Shown here one piece after another: positions 17,277 through 37,056 of a DNA stretch of 64,000 nucleotides. The stretch is from Thermoplasmata archaeon. Lineage in GTDB: Archaea > Thermoplasmatota > DTKX01 > JAHFTX01. The notes under the pieces are model-generated. The model saw nothing but the letters and a program-made list of their open reading frames with translations, had not been told where the DNA came from and searched no databases. The DNA is taken from NCBI GenBank assembly GCA_023265395.1, contig JAHFTX010000001.1, positions 65,897-129,896 on the forward strand, written 5' to 3'. Positions within the stretch are counted from its first letter, which is position 1; each line of letters opens with the position of its first letter. The position numbers and the translations under genes are program-made.

Positions 17277-17561
17277 GTGCACCATCCCGGTCGGGGGGGA
17301 GATGGTTCCTTGGCGCTTCGTCTGACGGTCAAGGATGCTGAGACGGGCAACCGCATCGAGATGGAACTGCAGGCGGAGAACACCGTCGATGAGGCAATCG
17401 AGAGCGCCTGCAGTTATTGGAGCAAGCGGCAAGGTGCTTTCGTCCTCAAGCAAGGCTCCACCATCTTGCGTGGGGGCGCGACCCTTCAGGGCAGTCACAT
17501 CGGAGAGCACACCATGCTCGAGCTGATTCCAGACCCACAGGGGGGTGCTCCTCTTGCCTAG
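17277..17561 (+). CDS. Ubiquitin-like small protein (beta-grasp) with C-terminal Gly-Gly followed by a 4-residue tail (pro-protein form)
   Basis: About 80-94 aa; ...LRLTVKDAETGNRIEMELQAENTVDEAIESACSYWSKRQGAFVLKQGSTILRGGATLQGSHIGEHTMLELIPDPQGG-APLA*. Start is non-ATG (GTG 17277 or TTG 17310, each preceded by a G-run). Overlaps the following E2-like gene by 8-17 nt. Confidence 0.6.
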   Translation: MHHPGRGGDGSLALRLTVKDAETGNRIEMELQAENTVDEAIESACSYWSKRQGAFVLKQGSTILRGGATLQGSHIGEHTMLELIPDPQGGAPLA

Positions 17562-18054
17562 GCTACCCGAGGACATCGTTCGTCAGCGGGTCGTCAATGA
17601 GTTGCGCGCGTGTCTGGATTCCTCCCGGCACACGATTAGGCTCGAAGAGGGGGCCCTCGAGAAGTTCCCAAACCGGGTCTGGATCGAGCTTGTTGGCTGT
17701 CCCGCGATGGTGCGCAGGGGAGACCGGGTCGAGACCTCGAGCGAACATCGCTTCCTGCTCGAGGTTCCGCGGGATTACCCCTACGAGCGTCCGACGGTCA
17801 TCTGGGCAACGGACATCTTCCACCCCAACATCATGCTCCCCAGCGAGGGAGGGTTCGTCTGCACCGGACTCCTGGAAGGGTGGACATCCCGCAGCACCTT
17901 GCTCGGATTCCTCCAGGGCCTGGAGGCGCTGCTGGCCAACCCCAATGCGGATAGCCCGTACGGAACCGCCAGTTGTACTTCGGCTGCCCAATACCTCAAT
18001 GCTCAACGAGCGACACCAGGGAGGACCCCTCAACTCTCTCGGACCTCCGGATGA
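17545..18054 (+). CDS. Ubiquitin-conjugating enzyme (E2/UBC-fold)-like protein
   Basis: 169 aa; ...DYPYERPTVIWATDIFHPNIMLPSEGGFVCTGLLEGWTSRSTLLGFLQGLEALLANPNADSP reproduces the UBC core: HPN motif, catalytic Cys 10 residues downstream, conserved Trp, LL..PN..P helix. GTG or TTG start. Confidence 0.75.
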   Translation: MLLLPRLPEDIVRQRVVNELRACLDSSRHTIRLEEGALEKFPNRVWIELVGCPAMVRRGDRVETSSEHRFLLEVPRDYPYERPTVIWATDIFHPNIMLPSEGGFVCTGLLEGWTSRSTLLGFLQGLEALLANPNADSPYGTASCTSAAQYLNAQRATPGRTPQLSRTSG

Positions 18055-18069: not shown

Positions 18070-18729
18070 ATGGTTCCACCGGCGCCCGAGCAGCACTCCC
18101 GGCCGCCATCAGTCGTGCGAGAAGTGCGTCTCCGGCGGCTCTTGGTCGAACCGCCGCGAGGCGAGCTGCCGCCCTGGGACCCTGAAGCGGCGGAACTCGC
18201 TAACGACCTCGCCCGTTGCACCATCGCAGCGGAGGCATGGGCAAGCATCGTCGATCAGTGTCGTTCGGCAGCGCAACGCAACGAGGAGACTATCGGGTTC
18301 CTGGTCGGGAGGCGAGTTGCCTGCAGGCGGACTCCGACGAAGGAGAACCGCCGTGCGACGCATCTCTTCGTCGCCATCACCCGCGCCATCACTGGAGAGC
18401 ACCGCGGCGACACCGTCTCTGTCCGATTCACCTCAGAGGGCCTCGCCCAGGCCGCAGGGCTCCTCAGTTTCGGTAGAGGGGGACGATCCGAGCAGCTGGT
18501 GGGGTGGTATCATAGTCACCTCGAGTTGGGATGCTTCCTCTCGGATCGGGACCTCATGACGCATGCACAAGCATTCCCTGGCGACGATGCGATCGCGCTG
18601 GTTGTGGATCCGCTACGGCGGGAGGCACGCGCATTCGCGCGCCCGCAATCTCGCGCCCTTGCCCCAGCTGGACCCGTCCAGGTGAGCTGGCTCCTGATTA
18701 CCGATGGAGTCACAGACCGTCCGGCTTGA
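18070..18729 (+). CDS. JAMM/MPN+ metalloprotease (Rpn11/JAB1-like deubiquitinase/processing protease)
   Basis: 219 aa; E-x(n)-H-x-H-x(7)-S-x(2)-D is present as EETIGFLVG...VGWYHSHLELGCFLSDRD. Confidence 0.8.
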   Translation: MVPPAPEQHSRPPSVVREVRLRRLLVEPPRGELPPWDPEAAELANDLARCTIAAEAWASIVDQCRSAAQRNEETIGFLVGRRVACRRTPTKENRRATHLFVAITRAITGEHRGDTVSVRFTSEGLAQAAGLLSFGRGGRSEQLVGWYHSHLELGCFLSDRDLMTHAQAFPGDDAIALVVDPLRREARAFARPQSRALAPAGPVQVSWLLITDGVTDRPA

Positions 18730-23380: not shown

Positions 23381-26300
23381 CTACTCCTCTTCGACCACCG
23401 CGGCTTCTTCGGCCTCGTCTGGTTGGTCATCGGTTCCCTTCTGTTCACTGCCCGGACCCTTGGCTCCGCCCAAGGGGGTGCTCTTCGACCGCCGACGCAG
23501 CACGAGGAAGGCGATGGCAAAGACGGCAATCAAGGCACCGGCGGCGATCGCTGCAATCACTCCCAGGCCAAGGCCGCGTGGGGCGGGGGTCTCATGGGGC
23601 ACTGTCGTCGTCTTCTTGGTGATGTTAAGGGCAAGCTCCTTCGTGGAGCTCTGGCGATCATCATCGGAGACGGTCAGAAGCACCACGACGGGGCCAACCT
23701 CGTCGAAAACATGGCTGATCTTCGCGCCGACCTGGACGACCTCCTTCGTACCCCGGAATCGCCATTCGAACGTTAGGTCCTTGACCTTATCATCAGGATC
23801 GCTGGTAGGGACGGCATCGAACGTCACGAGCGTACCCTGGGGATAGCTCGTCTTGCTATTGCCTTGGTTGTCCTTCTGTATGAAGTCCGCGATTGGCGGC
23901 AGATTGTTGACGCGGACGATAAGGCTCGCCGGTTCGCTCTCGAACCTCTGAGATGCCAGGAAGTACCATACCTGGACGGTCACCTCATACTCTTGGTCGT
24001 TGGGGAACTTGTGACCAGGTGCGACTTGGGAAGACTCTGCAGTATCCCCGAAGGACCAGTGGTAGTTGGTGACCTGCACGTCGGGACTCTCGACGGTCGG
24101 CGTGAACTGGAAGAGGGTGGTAATGTTGCCGCTGGCGGGGGAGACCGCCAGCGCCACCGCGGGCACACGCGGGCGGACAACGATGTCCTGGCTGCTGCTG
24201 AGGGCTGATTCGGCGCCGTGCTCATCGCGCACCTTGAGGGTCGCGGCGAATCCTCCGAGATCGGGGATTGCGTAACGGTGAATCACGAAGCTCGTGTTGA
24301 CCCATCCGCTGTCAGTCCCATCACCAAAGTCGAAGAGGTATTGCGCCACCTGGCCGTCGACGTCGTCGTCGCGAGAGGCATTGCCGCTGAGGACGACGGC
24401 TTCGAGGACTTCGACCTCGTTGGCAGTGGCCGTCAGCAACGCGACTGGCTTTCGATTGACGCGGAATTCGCCGGAGATGATGTTGTTCGACTCGTTGCTC
24501 TCGTCGACGAGATCTGCCGGGTCGATCGTCAGTTCCCATGTATGGGTTCCGCTGACTACGTCGGCCCACTCGAACGAGACGGCGGCTGAGTTCCCAGCAG
24601 AGAGAGCGAGGGAAACGGTCGAGAGGTGAGTGGTATCCAAAGCGCTGGCGACTTGGATCCCCGAGAGAGCGGAATCCCCAAGATTCACGATGGTGCCGGT
24701 GACGAACACCTCAGAATCCCCCTGGGTGATCACCGCCGGCGAGACCGTAAGGGGGCCAAGGAAGGTCAGATCGGGAATCGGCGCCGGTGGCGAGACCGCG
24801 ATCTCCTTCGAGCCATTGTTGTTCGATTCATTGCTCTCCAGCACTAGGTTTGCAGGGTCCACGACACCCAAGAGGGTCTGGTTTCCCGTGTGGACGGTCA
24901 TCGAGCCGACATACGTCGCGCTCTTTTGCGCCTGCAGATCCTGAGGGAGGAAGCTGACCAAGACAGACCCGTTGTCGGCTTCGATCCGCGCCTCCACACT
25001 CGGGAGGGTCACGAAACCGGTGCTCTTGACCACCATGGAGACATCCAGACTGTCGCCGTCGACCAGGCCGGAGGTGGGGGTAACGGCGAGGGAGACCACC
25101 TCGAGGTCATTGGTGATCGCCGAGGCGGTGTCGTCACCGCGGGCTCCCTGCACAGCCTGGGCCAGCCAGCGGTCGGGGTCGAGCTGTACTTGGCTCGACA
25201 AGCCCACGGTGGGGAAGTCCAGCTCGGCATCGGCCGAACCATTCCACGCCATGGGCAGGAGCAGCCCTTGGGGGAGGACCAGGATATCGACCGGCATGGA
25301 TGCCAGCCCGGTGCGGTGGACTGAGACGTGGACGAATTCTGCGCCGGTGGAATCACGGTAGGCAGTGGCACCAGTGATGGAGAAGTCGAGGACCCTCGAG
25401 GTGGTAAAGAAGGTCGACCAGAACAGGTCGATGTCTTTCCCGGCGTTTGCCTTGAGCGCGTTCTCCAGATCGGCAATCGTGCCTTGGTCGCCGAGGGCCC
25501 CCTGGACGTATTGGGTGATGCCGGCGGAGATGCTGGTGTTCCCGACCAGGTATCGCAACATGTGAAGGTAGGCGACCACCCGCGCATTGTCGTTGTCGTC
25601 GTATGCATTGTCGGTGATGTTGATCAGCGAGGTGGGCGATGCTCCGCCCTGCAGGCTCAGTTGCGCCAACGAGATCCTGCTCGAGTCGTCTTTGACTGCT
25701 TCGAAATACCGAGCGACCACGTACGCATCCAACCCCCAATTGACCACGCTCGAGCCTCCTGCACCTGCAGGGGCGATTCCAAAGTAGAAGAACTGGATCG
25801 TGAACGCGGATACAAAGTCGACCGATTGGGGGTCGTCAATGGCCACTGCGTGGGGCAGGACGATCAAGTTGCGGAAGGCGATGATGCCATCGAAGGGCAA
25901 TGTTGGCACTTCGACAATGGTGAGATTCGCGCGATCGAAACTACCCAAGAACCCATCGAGGAACGCTGTGATGTTGCTCGCTTCGTCGAGCAAGCGTGTG
26001 CTGTTGGCCGCTGCTTCGGGACCGACCTTGCTCTGCAGGCTGACCCCCGCGGTCGTCTGCTGATCCTCGACCCATGTCCCTGCCGCGACACCTAGGTAGG
26101 GGACTTTCCCATCGAGGATGAAATCGAAACTCTCCCACGTACCATCCGAGGTTGCCTGGACGAACTCCCCGGCAGCCCACGCGTCCCATCCCGTGATGGT
26201 AGGGACCCGAACGGAGACGTTTCCTAGGTAGCGGTCGGGATATCGACCTTGTGGATTGTCAGGGAAGGTCCCCCAACGATCGCGACCATCCAAGAAAAGG

Positions 26301-26806
26301 CCATTGGGGCGGACATAGGAGGTACGATCGACCGTGACGTTGTAGTTGAGGTAGAGATGGACGACCTCTCCTGCAGTGTGGTTGGTCGTGAGGTTGATCT
26401 GGAGTTCTGGCGGGTTGGTGGTGTTATCCCAGTAGGCGCTCACGGGGCCCGAGTCGTCGAGGATGTTATTGATCGTGAAGTTCGAGTCGACATACTCGAA
26501 CGCAATGTCGATCCGACCGATGTCCGCACCCGTGACAGCGAGGGTGATGTTGGATTGGACGAGGAGAGAACCATTCGTGGGGAACGCCCAGAGCACAAGA
26601 TCGAGATTGAGGAAGTCTTCTGTCGCCAGGCCAGGAGGTGGTGGGACGACATCGGATGGTGGGGAGGATTGGACCCCGGCGGCTATCGCACCACTCGAAG
26701 TCTCGCCTACCCTGGTCGCAGGATTCGTCGAGGGTGAGCCGACCGAACTAGGGGCAATCGATGTGCACAGAAGGAGCAGTACGAGGGTCACCGAAAGGGC
26801 GCGCAT
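23381..26806 (-). CDS. Large secreted cell-surface glycoprotein with PKD and CARDB-like domains and a C-terminal TM anchor with acidic cytoplasmic tail (S-layer/adhesin candidate)
   Basis: About 1141 aa from the signal-peptide start MRALSVTLVLLLLCTSIAPSSVG at 26806. PKD motifs (FDFGDGTDSGW...; WSFGDTAESS...), a CARDB-like stretch, dozens of N-x-S/T sequons, and a C-terminal TM helix GVIAAIAAGALIAVFAIAFLVL + RRRSK...EEAAVVEEE. The track start 27076 adds a non-secretory 90-aa leader. Confidence 0.75.
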   Translation of the reverse strand: MRALSVTLVLLLLCTSIAPSSVGSPSTNPATRVGETSSGAIAAGVQSSPPSDVVPPPPGLATEDFLNLDLVLWAFPTNGSLLVQSNITLAVTGADIGRIDIAFEYVDSNFTINNILDDSGPVSAYWDNTTNPPELQINLTTNHTAGEVVHLYLNYNVTVDRTSYVRPNGLFLDGRDRWGTFPDNPQGRYPDRYLGNVSVRVPTITGWDAWAAGEFVQATSDGTWESFDFILDGKVPYLGVAAGTWVEDQQTTAGVSLQSKVGPEAAANSTRLLDEASNITAFLDGFLGSFDRANLTIVEVPTLPFDGIIAFRNLIVLPHAVAIDDPQSVDFVSAFTIQFFYFGIAPAGAGGSSVVNWGLDAYVVARYFEAVKDDSSRISLAQLSLQGGASPTSLINITDNAYDDNDNARVVAYLHMLRYLVGNTSISAGITQYVQGALGDQGTIADLENALKANAGKDIDLFWSTFFTTSRVLDFSITGATAYRDSTGAEFVHVSVHRTGLASMPVDILVLPQGLLLPMAWNGSADAELDFPTVGLSSQVQLDPDRWLAQAVQGARGDDTASAITNDLEVVSLAVTPTSGLVDGDSLDVSMVVKSTGFVTLPSVEARIEADNGSVLVSFLPQDLQAQKSATYVGSMTVHTGNQTLLGVVDPANLVLESNESNNNGSKEIAVSPPAPIPDLTFLGPLTVSPAVITQGDSEVFVTGTIVNLGDSALSGIQVASALDTTHLSTVSLALSAGNSAAVSFEWADVVSGTHTWELTIDPADLVDESNESNNIISGEFRVNRKPVALLTATANEVEVLEAVVLSGNASRDDDVDGQVAQYLFDFGDGTDSGWVNTSFVIHRYAIPDLGGFAATLKVRDEHGAESALSSSQDIVVRPRVPAVALAVSPASGNITTLFQFTPTVESPDVQVTNYHWSFGDTAESSQVAPGHKFPNDQEYEVTVQVWYFLASQRFESEPASLIVRVNNLPPIADFIQKDNQGNSKTSYPQGTLVTFDAVPTSDPDDKVKDLTFEWRFRGTKEVVQVGAKISHVFDEVGPVVVLLTVSDDDRQSSTKELALNITKKTTTVPHETPAPRGLGLGVIAAIAAGALIAVFAIAFLVLRRRSKSTPLGGAKGPGSEQKGTDDQPDEAEEAAVVEEE

Positions 26807-27572
26807 GCGAAGAGCACACTCCAGTATCACAATCTCGCCGTGCCACGACCGCAGGCACGCGCGAGCAACTTGGGGTGCGTATATGAACCTTCTGCAATGC
26901 GTCATCGGTCGGTCCCACGCTGACTCCGTGAACCCCCGTCGACGGACGTGCGGGTCGACGGCGCCGCCCAGGTCGAGCCCTGTTTTCATCCTGGTGGGTT
27001 CCGTCACATCTTGGGCGATCCAGCCATGACGCAGGAACTTGAAGAGGTACGGCTCGGCGTCCTCGACGAAGACCATCGCCCAGCGCAGCGGCTACAGCTG
27101 CGGGGCCAGTTCCGCCGGAACAACTGCCGGGTCAGTCCCCTCATGCTATGGAGCACAGACGCGTTGAGGAAACGGTCGTGCCCGGGGGGGAACCTTCGTA
27201 TCAGCGGCCGGCGCTCAGCTTCGTGCCTATCGACTTGATGTAGCCCCATTTCATCGCGGCGAGGGATTGGTGGGCCCCGACGCCGGAGCTCAGGGCGAGG
27301 ATCCCGAGGATGGCCACCAGGTCGATCTCCCGCTTTCGCTTGATGGGCCACGGTGTTTCGGCGGTCTGACCGATTCCATCCGGCGGGAACAGGGCGTTCC
27401 GCGCCGCGAAGACATTGATCGTGGTGATGCTGGGAGACAGAGGAGATCGGCGTCATGGATTCTTTCGGGCCACGCGGACGCTCATGCACTGAACGTCGAC
27501 GCAGGGACAGAGCGTGGTCGAGGAGGCGCCGAGCCTGCCCAAGGTTTAAGCCCGGGAGCCCCGCAAGAGAGG

Positions 27573-27836
27573 ATGGTGACTTCGATGCCCAAGGACGAGG
27601 ATTTAGGGAAGGATTCGGTCAGAAGAAAGCTGGATTCTGCCAAGGAGGGGGTCGATAGGACGGTCGACGAAGCCGAGGTGATGATCCGCAACAAGGGCAA
27701 GGAGATCAAAGAATTCTTCAAGGACATCAGCGCTGTCCTGGAGGAGTGGAAGTTCTCGGTCGAGGAGACGGCTGAGGGCACGCGCATCGAGGTGCGCGCC
27801 GTCGCGCTGATCTCAACGGGCAAGAAGGGCCGATAG
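27573..27836 (+). CDS. Small conserved protein, paralog 1, with (D/E)WKFS(V/M)EE...EGTRI motif (resembles the amphi-Trp domain; tentative)
   Basis: 87 aa from ATG 27573: charged helical N-terminus then EEWKFSVEETAEGTRIEVRAVALI. Clear paralog of the ORF at 29649..29861 (EDWKFSMEEFPEGTRIYARFQVLL). Confidence 0.5.
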   Translation: MVTSMPKDEDLGKDSVRRKLDSAKEGVDRTVDEAEVMIRNKGKEIKEFFKDISAVLEEWKFSVEETAEGTRIEVRAVALISTGKKGR

Positions 27837-27841
27837 CGCGA

Positions 27842-28705
27842 TCACCGCCGCCGGAGGCCGTTGCGCAAGCGCTCGGCGATGAGGTCGGTCAGGTAGAAAT
27901 CTGGACGACGGCGAACCAGACCAAGGTATTCCGCACTCGTCTGCAGTCGACCCGGGTCGAAGTTCTTCGACGCGGCAGCGATGACGGCGTCGGACGACTG
28001 GTACTGCGCCATCGTGCACATGAGGCAGGCCAGGTCATAGGCCTCCCGTGCACGCACGGGGGCGCTCTCGCGGAATCGGGCGACGTCGAGGAGGAACACT
28101 TTGCCCGTGGGACCGACCATGATATTGTCGGACTTGAGGTCGCCATGCTGGACGCCGCCCCGATGCAGGGCAGCGAGCTGGCCGAAGGCACTCTCCATCA
28201 TCTGCGGTGTGACGGTGGTGCGCGAGAGAGGTGTACCCTCGATCCACTCGGTCACCAGCAGGACGCGCACACCATCGAGGGGGTGGAACCCCAGCGGCCG
28301 AGCCGTATTGAGCCCCAGCTTACGCATGCGCGCCAGGGTGTCTGATTGGTACTCTGCGACCTCCAGCGCGGAGGTTGGGACGTCGAACAGTGAGTCCTTG
28401 GCGTTCATCGTCAGGTACATGTTCTTGATGAATTGGGAGGCGACCACCGTCAGCAGGTCCGACGTCCCGACGATCTTCGCGAAGAGTGGGATCCGTCGTC
28501 CCCCATGGGTCCCGATGAGTTGGCAGGGGAGCGAGAAGCGCGAGGCACCACCTCCCAGGGGACGGATGCGCACGTTGGTGAGGCCGTAATGCTCGCGCAA
28601 GGTCTCGCGGATCCTCCGCAGCAGTTGACGCAGGTGAGCCTCAGGGGCCTGAGGGAGAGCGAGCGCATCACCTTCGGGGGACATGGCATCGTCCCAAGGG
28701 GTCAT
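27842..28705 (-). CDS. Protein kinase-like (RIO/Kdo-WaaP/Bud32-type atypical Ser/Thr kinase fold)
   Basis: 287 aa; catalytic loop VQHGDLKSDNIMVGPTGKVFLLDVA (HGDLxxxNI + DFG-like LLD), upstream Lys in FAKIV, and a Gly-rich loop IRPLGGGASR. Confidence 0.7.
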   Translation of the reverse strand: MTPWDDAMSPEGDALALPQAPEAHLRQLLRRIRETLREHYGLTNVRIRPLGGGASRFSLPCQLIGTHGGRRIPLFAKIVGTSDLLTVVASQFIKNMYLTMNAKDSLFDVPTSALEVAEYQSDTLARMRKLGLNTARPLGFHPLDGVRVLLVTEWIEGTPLSRTTVTPQMMESAFGQLAALHRGGVQHGDLKSDNIMVGPTGKVFLLDVARFRESAPVRAREAYDLACLMCTMAQYQSSDAVIAAASKNFDPGRLQTSAEYLGLVRRRPDFYLTDLIAERLRNGLRRR

Positions 28706-28768
28706 CGAGGGCTATCTACCCTCTGCCACGCAGGTCGTCCGATGGCGGACTGCCATGGTAGGGTCTGC

Positions 28769-29638
28769 TCAGTGCTTTCGGGTGCGTCGCCGCTGGAGGT
28801 AGGCGCGCAGCAACACCAGGATCAAGCGCCACCGATGGATCCGCAGACCGTTCTTGACGCCACGGCCGATCTCGATGACCGGACGACCTTGGTACGCAAG
28901 GACCACGCGCCAGATTGAGAGTTGTGGGAGTTCGAAGATCAGGCGGTTTGCATCCACCGTCACCGTCTTGTCGGCGATGGTCAGGTCCCAGTCGATGAGC
29001 CCTTCCTTCTCGATGTGGTAGCGGACACCATGGCGGAAGGTCGCGCGAAAGGCCGTGTAGGCGAGCATCTCGACGGTCGGGAGGTCGAGGGCACGGTTGA
29101 GTCTGCGACCACGGGGGGGTCGGTCATCGATCTCTCCCAGGGGACGAGGTGCCTCCTCCTGCACAGGCAGGGGCTTTCGCTTGACCGTGGGTGCCTTGCG
29201 ACGTCGCCTCGGAGGGCGCGAGGGGGACTTCTTCTGCGCGTCATGTGGTGGGGAGGGGCGGACCGGTGCACGTGGCGGGGCCAACTCCGAGGAATCTGGT
29301 TCGAGGAGCGGTGCCCCCTCCTTGTGATAGGCGGTGAGCACCCGCCGTTGCATCGGGTAGCGCCACTCCTGGGGCCAGAGGTCGAGTTCATCGTGTTCAG
29401 CTAGGTCGGAACCTGGCTCGTCGCCAGGCGAGGATCCCTCATCAATGCCCTGCGCTTCCCCGTCCCTCGCGGGATTACGATGAAACTCGTCGATCACCTC
29501 CGCCCCGGGGGGATCTGACCAGCTCTCGGCCCGGTCCGTGGGTGGGTCCTCGGAGAGGTGCTGGGCGGGTCCGGGCATGGCCTCCTGCGGAGGCTGCGCT
29601 GCCTCCGTCGGGGGCCGGCGGTCCTTGGCAGGTGGCAC
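28769..29638 (-). CDS. Hypothetical protein with Pro/Arg-rich disordered N-terminal half and structured C-terminal domain
   Basis: 289 aa ORF; the C-terminal 120 aa (LAYTAFRATFRHGVRYHIEKEGLIDWDLTIADKTVTVDANRLIFELPQLSIWRVVLAYQGRPVIEIGRG...) looks globular. No motif recognised. Confidence 0.45.
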   Translation of the reverse strand: MPPAKDRRPPTEAAQPPQEAMPGPAQHLSEDPPTDRAESWSDPPGAEVIDEFHRNPARDGEAQGIDEGSSPGDEPGSDLAEHDELDLWPQEWRYPMQRRVLTAYHKEGAPLLEPDSSELAPPRAPVRPSPPHDAQKKSPSRPPRRRRKAPTVKRKPLPVQEEAPRPLGEIDDRPPRGRRLNRALDLPTVEMLAYTAFRATFRHGVRYHIEKEGLIDWDLTIADKTVTVDANRLIFELPQLSIWRVVLAYQGRPVIEIGRGVKNGLRIHRWRLILVLLRAYLQRRRTRKH

Positions 29639-29648
29639 CTTCCCTCAC

Positions 29649-29861
29649 CTACTTCCGCAGGAGCACCTGGAACCGCGCGTAGATTCGCGTCCCCTCAGGG
29701 AACTCCTCCATCGAGAACTTCCAGTCCTCGACCTCGGCATCGAGACTCTCGAAGAGGGTATCCATCTCGTCGACGACCTTCTCGACGTTCTCCTTGTTGC
29801 CGCCGATCAGCTGGAGCACTGAGGCGATCTTCTCACGCTTTCCCATAGTCCTCCCCTCCAT
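29649..29861 (-). CDS. Small conserved protein, paralog 2, with DWKFSMEE...EGTRI motif (resembles the amphi-Trp domain; tentative)
   Basis: 70 aa from ATG 29861 (or 65 aa from 29846). Shares the W-K-F-S-x-E-E...E-G-T-R-I core with the 27573..27836 protein. Confidence 0.5.
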   Translation of the reverse strand: MEGRTMGKREKIASVLQLIGGNKENVEKVVDEMDTLFESLDAEVEDWKFSMEEFPEGTRIYARFQVLLRK

Positions 29862-29952
29862 GACCTTGGGCGCACCTGCGAGCGCAGGGCTCTGGTGCGA
29901 AGGAGGCTTAAGGGCATCCCCGCGGCGGGGGAGGCAGGTGAGATGGCCCTGC

Positions 29953-32900
29953 CTAGTCTGCTGCTTCCAGGGTACTGTCGGCGGTCTTCTCGGTATAGCG
30001 GTCGAGCAGTCGCTCTTCGCCGCGGAGTCGGTCCAAGAGGTCGGGCTCGGCCTGAGCGAGGCGGTCCATGTCACCGGTGAAGATGCGGTAGGCGCGCGCC
30101 TTCTCCGAGAGCTGATGAGAGAACTCTGCCAGCAGGCCGGTCATCGACGAGAGGTTGTTGCAGGCGACCACCATCTCGAGGGTCTGGGTATCCTCGCGGA
30201 CGACGGTGGTGATCACGATCTCCTCCTTGCCCTCGTTGGCCTTGCCGTAGTACCACGCCTCGGACCAGTACTGGGGACCATCGGAGGCGAATTCCCGCAC
30301 CAGCTTGACGTCATGCGCTTGGACGACCTCTTTAGAGAGCTGGAACGCCACGGGCATCTCGATTCCTTCGGGGAGCTTGTAGACCCGATTGTCCCGATAG
30401 CTTTGGCGGTCGGCGGTGCGCCGCAGGATGCCCACGTTGACCGTCTCGGGCGTATAGAAGATCGGGCAGACGATCTCCACGGTGCGCCGCTTCATATTGA
30501 CCGAGCGGCGCTCCCCATGAGGATCACGGTAGGTGAGGATTCCATCGAGCATGCTCTCCTGACAAATCTGCGGATCGAAGTAGAACGCCACGGTCTGCTT
30601 CTCGCCGGGGTTGATGACCCCGATCTCGATCTCCTCGCCATTGCGGGGGAGCTTGGGGTCGATGCGGTGGAGGGAGAGGTTCGTGCGGTTGTAGTAGGGC
30701 CGGAACGTCGCCTCGGTGATGACGGTGCTCGCCGTGTTCTTGAAGGCCACCTTCAGCCGGACATAGCCTTGGTAGAACTCGATGCCCGAGAGGACCTTGA
30801 CCTCACCTTCGTCGTCGCGCGCCGGTGGGATGAACGACAGCAACGGAGTCAGCGAAGTGGCCGCCTCAGCCACCAGCGAGAGGTCCCCGGCGAAGTCGTT
30901 CCACAGCGAGGAGTTGATACCCTCCACGCGGTCGACGGTGACCACGAGCTCCTGTTTGATGGCCGCACTGATGTCCCCATGGACGACAGCGACCACGGTC
31001 ACGTGGGGGCCGGCGCTGAAAACGACTGGACCAGGCCCTGCCTCGAGGGGGGGGATTGCGCTTGCTCCGGCGCGGCGATGGGACCTGAAGTGGGTCTGGA
31101 CCTGCTGGACCCACTCCATCGATGAGGTGGGGACCGGCGTCGTCTGTGCGACAGCATCGATGAGCCGACCATCATCAGAGAGCAGCAGCGCGTGGGAGAT
31201 CGGGCGGAACCCGCTGGCCCCACCACCCCCCTTCCCGAGGTCTCCCAACATCATCGGGGCGACCCGTGCCGGAGCAGCAGCGACATCGAGATCCACCTGA
31301 CCGAGGTGCGGCGGGTCCGCCTCCGGGGCTGTGGTAGGGCCCGGTCCATCGAGCGGATCGACCTCGGATCGGCGGGAGCGTCCGCGCACGAGGACCGCCA
31401 GAATCACTGCCGCGACAATGAGCAGCAGCAAGAGCGGGAAGATGCTACCGAGGAGCGCCTGAGCCCCTGGGGTGACAGAGCTTGCTGCACCAACCCGTGC
31501 CTCTCGTGTAGCGGTGTTGTCCCCTTCGCTGCGCTCGGAGATCGCCCCATCGGGGTCGATGACCGCGACTAGGTCTTGATGTCCGCGCGTCGCGTTCCAA
31601 GACAAGGAGACGGGCAGGCTGCTGCCCGGGGGCAGGAGCGCCAGCTGCAGCGAGGCGATCCGCGCGCCGTCGCGAGTGACGACGATGAGCACGTCCCGTG
31701 CTGCGCGGTCCCCGGTATTGCTCACCAGCAAGTTGAGGGAGACCTGCTCCCCCGGCTCGGCGGTGAGCCGCGTCTGGTCGGTCCAGGCGATGGTGAGGTC
31801 GATGACCCCGCTGAGCGGATCATTGGGGTCGACCGTCCCTAGTTCAGGGAGGAAGGTCACCACCTGGCTGTGGGTCGGACCGTTCCCCGCCCCGTCGGTG
31901 GCATCGACCTGGACCGTGTATTCCGTACCTAGGTCGAGGGACGTCAGAGGGAAGCTGCCTGATGCCATCAGCTCAGTGTTCGCGAGGAGACGCTGCTCCT
32001 GCCCGCTTGGGCCATAGAGGAGCTGCACGGTGCTTCGTTCAGACAACTGGTAGATGACCGTCGCAGAGCCATCGGGCTCCTCTGGAACGTCTACTCGGAG
32101 CTCGATGATCCTCGGCGGGGTGGTGTCGAGGGTCAAGGTGAGCGTCGGGCTGGTCGCCTCGTTCCCAGCGCGGTCGGTCACCCGCAGTCGCAGTTGATGG
32201 ACGCCGTCTCCAAGCAACTGAACCGGCAGTTCGCCGGTGAAGGGTTGGGCCGCCCCGAAACCCGCACCATCCATCTCGAGGGCCATCGTCAGGCTCCCAC
32301 TGCTGGGGCTGGGGTCGGCGCCGGAGACCGCCAGGGTGAGGCTTGGCGTCGAGACGAGGCCGCTGACGGGGGCGCCCAAGACCTGGAGTTGCACGCCGAT
32401 CGGCGCCTTGGTGTCGATGAAGACCGACGCCAGGGTGCTCTCGCCCACGTTCCCGGCTTCATCGCGCCCTTCGACGACGAGGCTCCTCGCGCCCTCTCCA
32501 TCGTTGCTTGCAAAGGTCCAGGAGAACAGGGCGGCAGGGTCTTGCCAATCCCCGAAGGTGGTCCCACCATCGTCGCTGATGCGCACTTGGGGTCGACCGA
32601 GGTTGTCCGAGATGGTCACCGACGCGTCGATGGTGAACGAGCGCGCGAAGCCCCTACCTTGCGCGAGCACGACCGCCGGCGCGTCCGGGGCCGTCCGGTC
32701 GAGGCGCACGACGATGGGATCGGAAGTTACGCGGTTCCCCATCGCGTCGGAGAGGGAAAGAGTCAACGACTTGCTCCCGTCGGCGCCGCTGAGGGTGAAG
32801 GTAATCAGGGAAGTCGGGCTCGCAAGCGCGCTCGAGCCTCCTGCTTCCTGGCGGACCTGGGCGAGCACGCTGCCGCTCCCGGTCCCGTCGTTCGCGAGGA

Positions 32901-35322
32901 CCTCGATGGGGATGGTCGCGGTGTTGGACCACGGCCTGTCATCGTTCACCACGAAGGCGGAGATCTGCGGGGGGCTGGTATCGACGCTGACATCGTCGAT
33001 CCCGTTGGTGGCGACGTTTCCGGCGGCGTCACGCACCCGCAGGAGCACTTGCCGTTCTCCGTCACCGGGGGGGAGGGTAAGCGTGCTCCCGACGGAGTAG
33101 GGGATCCAGGCCCCCCAGGTCGCTCCCCCGTCAGTGGAGAAGGCCATATCGTCCAGTCCCGAGGCGCTATCGGCGGCGGTGACGGCCACCTCGACGAGGG
33201 AGGAGTTGACGAATGTGGCACCTTGGGCGATCTCCAACCCCAGGCTGCTGGGCGGGATCGTATCGATCATGAACGGGCCCAGGTGCGACGCAGAGAGGTT
33301 CCAGTTGCCGGCAGCATCGAGGGTCCGGATGTGGAACCACTGCGAGTCGCTGTCCCCCAAGGTCGGGGAGATGGCCTGGTCGGCGCTCCCGTTGCCATCG
33401 GGGATCGAGTCGGGAATCGTCGTCGGGGCCGTGGTGAAGCTCCAGGAGAACCCGTCGATGCCACTGACGGCGCCGTCGGAACCGCTCCAGCGGACCTCGA
33501 CGATCGGGTTGTTCGACCAGGAACCGACCTGGTGGGTCGGAGAGGTCAGGGTCGTCGGATTGACGGGGTCGGTCCCATCGAACTTGAACGGCCCAAAGTG
33601 CGCCGCACCGGCATTCCAGTTCCCTGCCGCGTCCTTGGTGCGGATGTGGAAGTACCAGCCTGGAGAATCGGTCGGGAGGGTGGTGGCGTTGCTGGCGATG
33701 GATTGGTCGCCCTCGGAGATGGTATCGGGCAGAGTGGCGGCGTTCTGGTTCCACAGCCAGGAATAGTCAGAGACGCCGCTGCCAGTTCCGTCACTGGCCC
33801 CGCTCCAGTCGATCGTCAAGTCGGCGACGCCAAACCAACTGTCGATCGATTCGGTGGCGCTGAAGGAGTTGGGGTTAGTCGGCGGTGCGGTGTCGATCCA
33901 GAAGGGACCAACGTCGACGGAGGTGTCGTCCCAGTTGCCTGCGTTGTCCTTCGATTGGAGGTGCACGTAGTGCCCGGTACCATCGGCCAAGGCGGCGGAG
34001 GCGACGCTGGTGATGCCCTCTTCGAGGGTCTTGCCCTGACCTTGGGCCGTAGGCAGGGACGAGGGCGACGAGTCCCAGAGGATGGCGTATCCATCGAGGC
34101 CACTGGTCGCATCGGTCGCCGCGACCCACGAGAGGTCGACCGTGTTGTCATTGGCCCAGGCCGATATCGTGTGGCTGGGACTGGTCAACCCCGAGAGTGC
34201 GCTAGGGTCGACGGTGTCGATCCAGAAGGGCCCCAGATGGGCCGTGTTGATCGCCAACGCCCAGTTTCCAGCGTTGTCGACCGGCCTGATGTGGAAGTAG
34301 TGCGCGTTGCCGTCGGCCAAGACCGGACTAGTCTCAGAGCTGATCAGCTCCTCACGGTTCTTGACGGTGATTGGCAATGTGAGGGGGCTGGTGTCCCAGA
34401 AGACCGAGTATCCGTCGAGGCGACTGCCCCAATCGGTAGAGGCGGTCCAGGTGACATCGACCTGGTTGAGGGTCGACCACGACGAGACGGTGTGCGTGGT
34501 GCTGGTCAGTCCCGTGACCTTGGCGGGGGACTTGGTGTCGACCCCCGTCAGTAGGATATCGTCGAGATAGGTCCCCTCATAGTCGATCGGGGGGATGTTG
34601 TTGAAGTCGCTGCCGAAGAAGAACCCGATAATCGAGGCATTGGTCGGAATCGCGATGACGGTGTTCCTCCAACCGCCGGAGGACCCATCGCTGTCCTGCC
34701 AGGCCACCGGGTACTCACCCGGGAAGTCATCCGCCCAGTAATAGACCTGGATTGTGTCGTAGGTCGCTTCGGAACTGTACCAGTACCAGAAGCCGAGGCT
34801 CAACGAGTCGAAGCCGGTCGCGTTCCCGAAGTCATATTCCATCCACGCCTCCTGATCGTGGTCGTAATCGTGGGTGTCGGTGTTGGGATTACCGGTTCCA
34901 GAATTCGTGCCTACCTGGGAAGCCCAGACGGATTTGGCGCCGGTGTGGGCACGACCTCCTGTGCCAGGGCCATCGACGCCCCAGTAGTCCGCGCCCGAGG
35001 TCGGTTCCTGGTCGTCACGGGACCAACCGGCTGGCCAGACGCCACCCTCGAAGTCCTCATCGATTAGTGTCCAGATCGCTGCCGGGTGAAGGCCACCGCT
35101 GCCGTCCTTGAGTGCCGGGGGCAGGTCCCAACCATCCAAGCTGCCTAGTCCGTGGGAGCCGACAAGCCCGCTCCCGGTCACCCCGGTAGCAGAGGTACCA
35201 CTGGCCATGGCTGGTGATGTCACCAAGGCCGTGACGATGAGCAGCAGGGCAGCCACGGTGGCTGCCCTGGGGTGCAGGCTACGGCATCGCCCCATCGGGA
35301 GGTGGTTCGACACCGGGCCCAT
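29953..35322 (-). CDS. Giant single-pass transmembrane protein: signal peptide, N-terminal globular domain, 5 tandem ~95-aa repeats, Ig-like/CARDB domains, TM helix, ~520-aa cytoplasmic region with a roadblock/LC7-like segment
   Basis: 1789 aa. Signal peptide AATVAALLLIVTALVTSPAMASG. Five repeats each ending ...DNAGNW...GPFWIDT(V/A)(D/P)P. CARDB-like LLVSNTGDRAARDVLIVVTRDGARIASLQLALLPPGSSLPVSLSWNA. TM helix IFPLLLLLIVAAVILAVLV. Cytoplasmic GFRPISHALLLSDDGRLIDAVAQT...VTVVAVVHGD resembles MglB/roadblock. Confidence 0.8.
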   Translation of the reverse strand: MGPVSNHLPMGRCRSLHPRAATVAALLLIVTALVTSPAMASGTSATGVTGSGLVGSHGLGSLDGWDLPPALKDGSGGLHPAAIWTLIDEDFEGGVWPAGWSRDDQEPTSGADYWGVDGPGTGGRAHTGAKSVWASQVGTNSGTGNPNTDTHDYDHDQEAWMEYDFGNATGFDSLSLGFWYWYSSEATYDTIQVYYWADDFPGEYPVAWQDSDGSSGGWRNTVIAIPTNASIIGFFFGSDFNNIPPIDYEGTYLDDILLTGVDTKSPAKVTGLTSTTHTVSSWSTLNQVDVTWTASTDWGSRLDGYSVFWDTSPLTLPITVKNREELISSETSPVLADGNAHYFHIRPVDNAGNWALAINTAHLGPFWIDTVDPSALSGLTSPSHTISAWANDNTVDLSWVAATDATSGLDGYAILWDSSPSSLPTAQGQGKTLEEGITSVASAALADGTGHYVHLQSKDNAGNWDDTSVDVGPFWIDTAPPTNPNSFSATESIDSWFGVADLTIDWSGASDGTGSGVSDYSWLWNQNAATLPDTISEGDQSIASNATTLPTDSPGWYFHIRTKDAAGNWNAGAAHFGPFKFDGTDPVNPTTLTSPTHQVGSWSNNPIVEVRWSGSDGAVSGIDGFSWSFTTAPTTIPDSIPDGNGSADQAISPTLGDSDSQWFHIRTLDAAGNWNLSASHLGPFMIDTIPPSSLGLEIAQGATFVNSSLVEVAVTAADSASGLDDMAFSTDGGATWGAWIPYSVGSTLTLPPGDGERQVLLRVRDAAGNVATNGIDDVSVDTSPPQISAFVVNDDRPWSNTATIPIEVLANDGTGSGSVLAQVRQEAGGSSALASPTSLITFTLSGADGSKSLTLSLSDAMGNRVTSDPIVVRLDRTAPDAPAVVLAQGRGFARSFTIDASVTISDNLGRPQVRISDDGGTTFGDWQDPAALFSWTFASNDGEGARSLVVEGRDEAGNVGESTLASVFIDTKAPIGVQLQVLGAPVSGLVSTPSLTLAVSGADPSPSSGSLTMALEMDGAGFGAAQPFTGELPVQLLGDGVHQLRLRVTDRAGNEATSPTLTLTLDTTPPRIIELRVDVPEEPDGSATVIYQLSERSTVQLLYGPSGQEQRLLANTELMASGSFPLTSLDLGTEYTVQVDATDGAGNGPTHSQVVTFLPELGTVDPNDPLSGVIDLTIAWTDQTRLTAEPGEQVSLNLLVSNTGDRAARDVLIVVTRDGARIASLQLALLPPGSSLPVSLSWNATRGHQDLVAVIDPDGAISERSEGDNTATREARVGAASSVTPGAQALLGSIFPLLLLLIVAAVILAVLVRGRSRRSEVDPLDGPGPTTAPEADPPHLGQVDLDVAAAPARVAPMMLGDLGKGGGGASGFRPISHALLLSDDGRLIDAVAQTTPVPTSSMEWVQQVQTHFRSHRRAGASAIPPLEAGPGPVVFSAGPHVTVVAVVHGDISAAIKQELVVTVDRVEGINSSLWNDFAGDLSLVAEAATSLTPLLSFIPPARDDEGEVKVLSGIEFYQGYVRLKVAFKNTASTVITEATFRPYYNRTNLSLHRIDPKLPRNGEEIEIGVINPGEKQTVAFYFDPQICQESMLDGILTYRDPHGERRSVNMKRRTVEIVCPIFYTPETVNVGILRRTADRQSYRDNRVYKLPEGIEMPVAFQLSKEVVQAHDVKLVREFASDGPQYWSEAWYYGKANEGKEEIVITTVVREDTQTLEMVVACNNLSSMTGLLAEFSHQLSEKARAYRIFTGDMDRLAQAEPDLLDRLRGEERLLDRYTEKTADSTLEAAD

Positions 35323-36399: not shown

Positions 36400-37056
36400 C
36401 TACCGAACGATCTTGGCGAAGGCGCGGTTGCCACTGACCCGTTCGATGAGGACTTTGACCTTCTGCCCCTTGGACGTCCCCGGCACGAAGACGACGAATC
36501 GGTCGACCTTGGCCAACCCGTCGCCACGGTTGCCGACGTCGACGATGTTGACCTCGTACTCCTTCCCTTCCTCGATGGCTGGGATCTCGGGACCCTTGAT
36601 GGCAGCGTACGCGCGCACCGGTCGGTGCGCCCCGCAGGCCGAACACTGCAGGATGGTCGTGCGACCTTCCTTGACCAGCTTGGTATCGGGCCGGCGGCAT
36701 TCCTGGCAGATGACGAACATCTCCACGAACGCCTCGAGCTTCTCCACGATCTGGCGCTCTGCGACACGCGACTTGAAGGTCAACCGTCCAGCCTCGCGGG
36801 ATCCTGCCGTGCCCAGCTCCCCCAGGAGGAACTTGTAGACGTAGGCCGGGTCGCGGTCGAGCACCTTGCAGACCTCGTCGAAGTTCTGGAAGACGGTCTG
36901 GCGACCTTCGACCAACAGGGTCGGCTCGGGGAGTTGCCACCGTTCATGGGCCGCACTGGTGCCCGGGAGCTTGGCCCGCATCCGAGCGAGCAGGGCATCG
37001 TAGTCGCCGAAGAGGGCCTCGGGAGCGGACTTCGAGGGGTCGGCGCTCATAGGCAA
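36400..37056 (-). CDS. eif2b: Translation initiation factor 2 subunit beta (aIF2beta) fused to a C-terminal TRAM domain
   Basis: 218 aa; aIF2beta core (NFDEVCKVLDRDPAYVYKFLLGELGTAGS..., zinc ribbon CQECRRPDTKL...CSACGA), then KEYEVNIVDVGNRGDGLAKVDRFVVFVPGTSKGQKVKVLIERVSGNRAFAKIV, a TRAM fold signature. Confidence 0.8.
   Translation of the reverse strand: MPMSADPSKSAPEALFGDYDALLARMRAKLPGTSAAHERWQLPEPTLLVEGRQTVFQNFDEVCKVLDRDPAYVYKFLLGELGTAGSREAGRLTFKSRVAERQIVEKLEAFVEMFVICQECRRPDTKLVKEGRTTILQCSACGAHRPVRAYAAIKGPEIPAIEEGKEYEVNIVDVGNRGDGLAKVDRFVVFVPGTSKGQKVKVLIERVSGNRAFAKIVR

Follow-up and report, generated by a model that had tools for sequence, protein, structure and literature searches.

Which of the neighbouring genes at positions 27,573 to 35,322 of a 64,000-nucleotide stretch of Thermoplasmata archaeon DNA (GenBank assembly GCA_023265395.1, contig JAHFTX010000001.1, positions 65,897 to 129,896 of the forward strand) work together, and as what? 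An earlier note on this DNA had taken two small tryptophan-motif proteins, an atypical kinase, a partly disordered protein and a giant membrane protein for a surface-to-cytoplasm signalling module, further processed or regulated by an adjacent presenilin-family protease. We followed up this proposal in the whole stretch, hereafter the window (GC content 61-68%), and in its relatives. To judge from the gene order in these relatives, four of the genes form a self-contained unit of a clade of uncultured Thermoplasmata. They encode the small proteins A and B, the kinase K and the bipartite protein X:

27585..27836, + strand: small protein A, 83 amino acids, read as an open reading frame (ORF) with its translation (alternative ATG at 27573)
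27842..28705, - strand: kinase K, atypical Hanks-type, 287 amino acids
28769..29638, - strand: protein X, whole, 289 amino acids
29649..29846, - strand: small protein B, 65 amino acids, first gene of the B-X-K operon

In the window, 10 nucleotides separate B from X and 63 separate X from K; K and A are convergent, with their stop codons 5 nucleotides apart. The same order, B followed by X and K with A convergent, was found in 12 of the 12 independent contexts examined (the window with L093, L001-L004, L005-L008, L009, L010, L011, L089 with L090, L091 with L092, L094, L177, L178 and L179). The L010 context is cut by a contig end, and in every complete context the A-type gene is convergent and lies downstream of K. 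The neighbourhood of the small proteins, the kinase and the disordered protein is thus conserved, which speaks in favour of the module. B, X, K and A have 65, 360, 276 and 90 amino acids in L001-L004, and A, K, X and B have 62, 279, 291 and 65 in L091 and L092. When the six-frame ORFs were scanned with hidden Markov models (HMMs), each locus yielded a single K, a single X C-terminal domain and just two small proteins. The flanking genes, for their part, differ by lineage and include PfkB, serine hydroxymethyltransferase, aspartyl-tRNA synthetase, pyruvate:ferredoxin oxidoreductase, ABC transporters and ribosomal genes; the L089 context sits on a 1.8-Mb contig. In a scan of a genome collection with the K alignment, matches to the generic D(I/L)KxDNIM motif drowned out the rest, and only three true relatives were recovered. 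All four proteins are annotated as hypothetical only in every source, and full-text searches of the literature found no description of the cassette. A, B and X have no family match in Pfam or NCBIfam and no match in the PDB. They match no curated family. The parts and the architecture are new; the type, an atypical kinase with small accessory proteins, is already known from KEOPS and the RIO kinases.

Two variations were seen around A. An extra gene of 207 amino acids lies between K and A in L009 (L009:6823-7446, + strand), so that a gene can be inserted between K and A and A still remain close by. In four contexts of the subclade with a fused B (see below) a protein of 226-280 amino acids without Pfam match adjoins A divergently (L005:8912-9679, L179:7858-8625, L089:12025-12705 and L178:7750-8592), and the L005 copy looks from its sequence like a multi-pass membrane protein. 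This protein may be a fifth component specific to a subclade. It is not adjacent to A in the window.

Are the small ORFs genes, and are they related? Direct reading finds the core EEWKFSVEETAEGTRIEV in A and EDWKFSMEEFPEGTRIYA in B, and the two proteins are 36% identical by BLASTP with E=2e-11, so that their similarity is not due to chance. The common tryptophan-motif core described in the earlier note is therefore real, and we read A and B as ancient paralogues. Both genes stand where they had been placed, with corrected starts. The start given for B, 29861, is five codons too long: the second ATG, at 29846, is preceded by a ribosome-binding site, GGAGGGGAGG, and the resulting length fits the homologues. 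For A, the start at 27585 (MPKDEDL, 83 amino acids) is backed by an identical called gene, P0001, and by a homologue, P0002. A profile search gathered 56 homologous clusters, all of 55-131 amino acids (for the family, about 60-90), whose named sources are all Thermoplasmata metagenome assemblies. The small ORFs thus have homologues in relatives, and these split into two conserved subfamilies, A-type (consensus ..AVLEEWKFSVEETKEGTRIEVHAVALIRH..) and B-type (consensus MGKKEKIASVLQLIGG..AEVEDWKFSMEEF.EGTRI.ARFQVLLKK). Between B and its orthologue on contig L097, differences number 9, 7 and 20 at codon positions 1, 2 and 3; from this pattern B is under purifying selection and the small ORFs are real genes. 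We consider both A and B genuine on this reading of the sequences.

Within the core, the Ser of WKFS is kept in 56 of 56 small proteins and in 67 of 70 proteins that join B to the disordered part of X (see below), and the Thr of GTR in 51 of 56 small proteins. An AlphaFold2 model of the fused form shows a helix (residues 16-36) packed on a beta-hairpin (39-51 and 54-65), with a predicted local distance difference test (pLDDT) of about 80-86; A and B would each be one such helix on a single amphipathic hairpin. The PDB holds no sequence relatives of A and B or of the fusion, and no significant fold match to the model of the fused form. A family suggested in the earlier note was amphi-Trp, whose members, like A and B, are small and have a conserved Trp and an amphipathic helix. 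We searched its Pfam and NCBIfam models (Amphi-Trp and TIGR04354) with A and B at E≤1 and with 29 members of the A/B family at E≤10; neither A nor B nor any of the 29 matched, and membership was rejected.

The control of A may be separate from that of the operon. A possible promoter element was read from the sequence ahead of A:

27541..27556, + strand: possible promoter element of A, cccaaggTTTAAgccc, resembling a B recognition element with TATA box (BRE/TATA)

In the window the element stands about 30-45 nucleotides ahead of the start codons. Similar CCCCAAnnTTTAnA elements precede A in L001, L009, L091 and L094, and one also precedes B in L001. The shared element, of the type CCCCAAnnTTTA(T/A)A, is found about 45-55 nucleotides ahead of the start codons of A and probably serves these lineages as their BRE/TATA promoter. 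A would thus have its own promoter and be supplied independently. Rfam and bacterial promoter and terminator scans of the region gave no matches.

What kind of kinase is K? Three of its motifs can be placed on the DNA:

28466..28483, - strand: beta3 Lys motif FAKIVG of K
28115..28147, - strand: catalytic loop HGDLKSDNIMV of K
28079..28093, - strand: LLDVA of K, with the Asp equivalent to that of DFG

The kinase recognized in the earlier note by its HGDLKSDNIMV loop is confirmed. An alignment of eight K lineages shows the invariant beta3 Lys in F(A/G)KI, the loop HGD(L/I)KxDNIM and the motif (I/L)(L/V)Dx(G/A), along with AYDxxCL, a family-specific motif that is also invariant. The segment from DxG to AYD is short and the APE motif is absent. 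K thus has the beta3 Lys, the HxD...N loop and the metal-binding Asp of the Hanks-type superfamily, and we take it, as far as these residues can tell, for a catalytically competent, deeply divergent and atypical member. Its Pfam matches (APH, Kdo, TCAD9, Pkinase, RIO1 and ABC1) are weak and partial. Orthologues are labelled RIO1 (L001, and weakly L091) or Pkinase, or carry no label.

Two archaeal kinase families come close to K. In a profile search of the PDB, RIO2 came first (E=1.2e-4) and is the best relative of known structure. RIO kinases and K share an archaeal distribution, a short kinase domain that lacks APE and activation segment, and a conserved Asp where DFG would stand. K differs in having no winged-helix N-terminal domain, in being restricted to a lineage where RIO kinases are universal, and in being always linked to A, B and X, whereas RIO kinases have no such linkage. 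Membership of the RIO family was rejected, RIO1 scoring 15.0 bits for a cut-off of 22. A second likeness is with KEOPS, where an atypical minimal Hanks-type kinase, Bud32, works with very small accessory proteins (Cgi121, Pcc1 and Gon7), and where the Bud32-type kinase can act as an ATP-driven switch instead of a classical kinase (PMC5007285). Bud32 (TIGR03724) is also the top NCBIfam match of K, at 34 bits for a cut-off of 125, a score on which membership was likewise rejected. No Kae1-like gene was called beside K in the gene tables of the contexts, the K loop reads HGDLKxDN, and A and B, each a helix with a hairpin, match neither Pcc1 nor Cgi121 nor any other model.

These affinities raise the main rival to a protein-directed kinase, namely that K phosphorylates a small molecule or RNA, like Kdo kinase, APH or the tRNA kinase ArkI, that the C-terminal domain of X binds this nucleic-acid or anionic substrate, and that A and B are acidic regulators or mimics. 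The best Pfam scores of K, both above their cut-offs, are those of APH (26.6 bits for 23.2) and Kdo (24.3 for 21.3); Pkinase reaches 19 bits. The PDB profile matches also include TkArkI and chains of Bud32 and KEOPS. From the APH and Kdo scores and the TkArkI match a non-protein substrate is possible, and the RIO and Bud32 relatives act on ribonucleoproteins or tRNA as ATPases (PMC5007285). Nevertheless, the best APH stretch spans positions 33-109 of the 239 in the profile, and Pkinase, APH, Kdo, RIO1 and ABC1, each matched in part, are members of a single clan, so that these matches do not discriminate between substrates. The catalytic loop of K, HGD(L/I)KxDN(I)M, is moreover that of Ser/Thr protein kinases and unlike those of RIO and Bud32. 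Ser/Thr protein kinases have as a signature a Lys two residues beyond the catalytic Asp (PROSITE PS00108), and at that loop position RIO (HGDLSEYN) and Bud32 carry Ser or Thr. X, for its part, has a consistently basic C-terminal domain, which would suit such a substrate, and no detectable domain for binding RNA or small molecules. All in all, we regard a small-molecule or RNA substrate as unlikely.

The third component, X, is bipartite, with a low-complexity acidic N-terminal part and a conserved C-terminal domain:

29102..29638, - strand: N-terminal intrinsically disordered region of X, 179 amino acids, rich in Pro, Arg and Glu
29480..29515, - strand: motif 1 of the disordered region, DPPGAEVIDEFH
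29360..29389, - strand: motif 2 of the disordered region, ELDLWPQEWR
29309..29341, - strand: motif 3 of the disordered region, VLTAYHKEGAP
28772..29101, - strand: C-terminal domain of X, about 110 amino acids, basic, with an isoelectric point (pI) of 11
28772..28834, - strand: basic amphipathic helix closing the C-terminal domain

The 289-amino-acid protein with a disordered half is thus as it had been described, the disorder being that of the N-terminal part. Its three short motifs align across lineages, with the consensus DPPG.EVI.EFH, DLDL..(F/W)...WR and (E/A)YHKEGAP. A first search with a mixed alignment yielded mainly fusions of B to the disordered region; a second one, targeted at the C-terminal domain, collected 88 homologous clusters. 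Most are proteins of 154 amino acids that stand alone; none has a Pfam domain, and Thermoplasmata is named wherever a source is given. This C-terminal domain is basic in 44 of the 44 sequences checked (pI 8.8-11). AlphaFold2 models it as a helix, six strands and a C-terminal helix (pLDDT 68, predicted TM-score 0.37), and the PDB gave no match by fold or by sequence. The idea that the domain is built of hairpins homologous to those of A and B was rejected, with an hhalign probability of 0.1%.

The link between B and X comes from natural fusions. In many lineages the disordered region extends the C-terminus of B, and about 70 clusters are such fusions, of about 190 amino acids; in the AlphaFold2 model of this fused form, the disordered region is mostly below a pLDDT of 50, with a helix at about 60 over DLDL..F..WR. 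B always comes first, the disordered region next and the X C-terminal domain last, and only the break point between genes varies. From the fusion and the shifting break point, B and X probably work as one assembly.

The lineages with a fused B are L005-L008, L010, L011, L090 and L177-L179 (for example L005:11641-12231); in this subclade the C-terminal domain of X is a separate gene of 154 amino acids that overlaps the start of the kinase by 1 nucleotide. In L089, the disordered region is split into genes of 83 and 94 amino acids. The 1-nucleotide overlap between the gene of the X C-terminal domain and K is found in L005, L089, L178 and L179, a layout compatible with translational coupling.

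Does the cassette also belong with the giant protein and the protease that stand next to it? The features concerned are the following:

29953..35322, - strand: giant single-pass surface protein, 1789 amino acids, a neighbour outside the conserved cassette
35197..35322, - strand: signal-like N-terminus of the giant protein
31456..35196, - strand: ectodomain of the giant protein, with Ig-like, CARDB and fn3 repeats
31390..31455, - strand: transmembrane segment of the giant protein, residues 1290-1311
29956..31389, - strand: cytoplasmic tail of the giant protein, 478 amino acids
35376..36374, - strand: archaeal presenilin homologue (PSH), called gene of 332 amino acids (alternative start 36302), a neighbour outside the cassette

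Much of the earlier description of these two proteins holds. The giant protein does have 1789 amino acids, a signal-like N-terminus and one transmembrane segment; its tail is of 478 amino acids, and not of about 520. The presenilin/SPP-family gene is indeed adjacent: it matches Pfam SPP with 239.9 bits (E=4.9e-71) and the NCBIfam model IMP_arch_presen with 288 bits, and the catalytic motifs YD and GxGD are seen in its translation (LAIYDAIA and FMGLGDIIIPG). By these signatures it is a bona fide PSH. The roadblock/LC7 segment proposed for the tail found no profile support, as Robl_LC7 was matched neither by the tail at E≤10 nor, at E≤1, by 13 family members (the tail and 12 homologues); one of the 13 gave a weak Fuz_longin_1 match (E=0.013). 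From its sequence pattern the tail could combine a longin/roadblock-like domain with a beta-sandwich and a second alpha/beta domain, a reading that no profile or PDB match supports. The tail has no Pfam match and no sequence relatives in the PDB, and forms a conserved module of about 400 amino acids with 527 cluster representatives, 250 of them at E≤1e-30. The module is almost always C-terminal in proteins of 900-4900 amino acids, with a transmembrane segment just upstream, and there are often several per contig (100 ORFs in 80 loci, L097-L176).

On the reading that unites all these genes, the giant protein would sense, its tail would talk to the kinase, the presenilin would cleave the receptor and the cassette would be the cytoplasmic arm of the island. 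In the window, the genes are adjacent and co-oriented in the order presenilin, giant, B, X and K, with 106 nucleotides between giant and B. The conserved tail module would also fit an intracellular role, and single-pass membrane proteins, the class of the giant, are the substrate class of presenilins. The same junction between giant and B is kept in L097; this contig, 1.3 kb long, belongs to a close relative whose tail is 69% identical. However, a tail-module gene was found in none of the 11 other cassette contexts, within at most about 10 kb on each side (HMM scan for eight contexts; gene tables for L177-L179, where the longest protein has 858 amino acids), and no presenilin was called in the gene tables of these contexts. 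Reciprocally, the 80 metagenome loci with a tail module (770 kb, 100 tail ORFs) contain no cassette kinase, X domain or presenilin; L097 provides their sole small-protein match, and the other 79 are free of any cassette gene. No conserved linkage of the PSH with the cassette or with the tail-module family was found either. From both linkage tests, the adjacency of giant and cassette is a recent, lineage-specific accident of gene order. Of the module once proposed, the four-gene core is thus conserved, and neither the giant protein nor the presenilin was found with it in the other contexts over the DNA and gene tables covered. As a general model, the island is already largely refuted and we hold it for very unlikely; on the present gene maps, the giant protein and the PSH are incidental neighbours and the cassette is independent of both. 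A 1467-amino-acid PKD protein upstream of the cassette in L001 was considered as an orthologue of the giant and rejected, its Ig-like similarity being faint and the tail module missing.

Other genes of the window can be mentioned here. A second large surface protein, of 1231 amino acids (23381..27076, - strand), is divergent from A at a distance of about 500 nucleotides; its domains are CARDB and PKD, with a weak M1-peptidase-like segment besides, and its cytoplasmic tail is short; the tail module of the 1789-amino-acid protein is missing. The window also encodes aIF2-beta and a cluster of L44e, S27e, aIF2-alpha and Nop10, and is archaeal. Every homologue of the proteins studied here that carries a source name is from a Thermoplasmata metagenome-assembled genome. 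The aIF2-beta gene (36400..37056, - strand, 218 amino acids) combines an eIF-5_eIF-2B domain (E=3.6e-35) with a C-terminal TRAM domain (E=2.3e-12), a fusion that to our knowledge departs from the usual aIF2-beta architecture. Two genes shortly precede the cluster of L44e, S27e, aIF2-alpha and Nop10: one for an E2-like ubiquitin-conjugating enzyme (17545..18054, + strand; Pfam UQ_con, 47.9 bits for a cut-off of 27) and, directly after it, one for a JAB/MPN deubiquitinase-like protein (18070..18729, + strand; 40.7 bits for a cut-off of 22.5). Together they may belong to a ubiquitin system of eukaryotic type in this Thermoplasmata archaeon.

The presence of the cassette among unrelated flanks in all contexts could also evoke a mobile toxin-antitoxin or anti-virus defence module. 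In line with this, the core of K weakly matches the defence kinases MkoA (E=2.5e-9) and PD-T4-6; these matches are nonetheless limited to the generic catalytic core (about residues 145-225 of K), and A, B and X are unmatched in PADLOC. PHROG returned matches for A only; they are weak (E=0.0022 and 0.063) and the families have no known function, and a search of 2.9 million viral contigs yielded no relative. The cassette occurs once per contig, with housekeeping genes among the neighbours, and flanking integrases, transposases or repeats were not noticed. A defence or viral origin was rejected on the PADLOC, PHROG and viral-contig scans, and the mobile-module explanation appears to us scarcely credible.

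How, then, could the four proteins work? The best overall explanation, to which we give about an even chance, is a regulatory complex of kinase and scaffold made from four genes, with a B-X-K operon and a separately promoted A. It builds on the real genes, the A/B paralogy, the strict order, the X/K overlap, the B fusion and the invariant K residues; to these it adds complex assembly, A/B exchange, a phosphorylation switch and an output of X. B, X and K would assemble co-translationally into one complex, in which X would be the scaffold and B would be tethered to it by way of the disordered region. A, expressed separately, could pair with B or compete with it for the same site through the hairpin surface that they share. 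K would use ATP, either for phosphorylation of one component or, like RIO and Bud32, to drive a conformational switch of the complex; the best candidate phospho-acceptors would be the WKFS Ser, the GTR Thr or the YHKEGAP Tyr. Phosphorylation would toggle the assembly in the manner of a partner switch, and the output would come from the basic C-terminal domain of X, through binding to an acidic target, either nucleic acid or membrane. That the whole would be a Thermoplasmata-specific kinase machine of four components, with A and B exchangeable on a disordered scaffold, K as the switch and a basic effector of new fold, we consider possible, if rather doubtful.

A parallel could be made with the RsbW/RsbV and SpoIIAB/SpoIIAA pairs of bacteria, where a kinase is co-encoded with small proteins, as in the proposed Ser-phosphorylation switch. 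This analogy would be a functional one only: the bacterial partner-switching systems use a GHKL kinase and a STAS domain, the folds are unrelated, and no sigma factor or phosphatase was seen here.

Several points weigh against the regulatory complex. The cassette is read from sequences and models, so that interaction, kinase activity and substrate are all predicted. The structure models are moderate and come without a fold match to anchor a function, and APH and Kdo, the top Pfam models of K, are families of small-molecule kinases. In addition, in L001 the candidate Ser and Thr of the A-type protein are replaced by Gly and Val, so the Ser of WKFS and the Thr of GTR are not obligatory phospho-acceptors in A. 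Finally, the phyletic breadth of the cassette is known from metagenome fragments.

What this locus brings to the biology of the Thermoplasmata can be stated at several levels. The analysis defines three unannotated protein families, namely the A/B mini-proteins, the C-terminal domain of X and the set of disordered-region motifs, and the natural fusions of B to the disordered region predict binding partners. The negative linkage result shows that the eye-catching giant receptor and presenilin are incidental. Signalling by Ser/Thr phosphorylation is poorly mapped in archaea, and Thermoplasmatales are without two-component systems (PMC5007285); the syntenic cassette offers a testable candidate for a lineage-specific regulatory complex. 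If the four-component machine were true, it would be a new archaeal signalling architecture without homologous counterpart in bacteria or eukaryotes.

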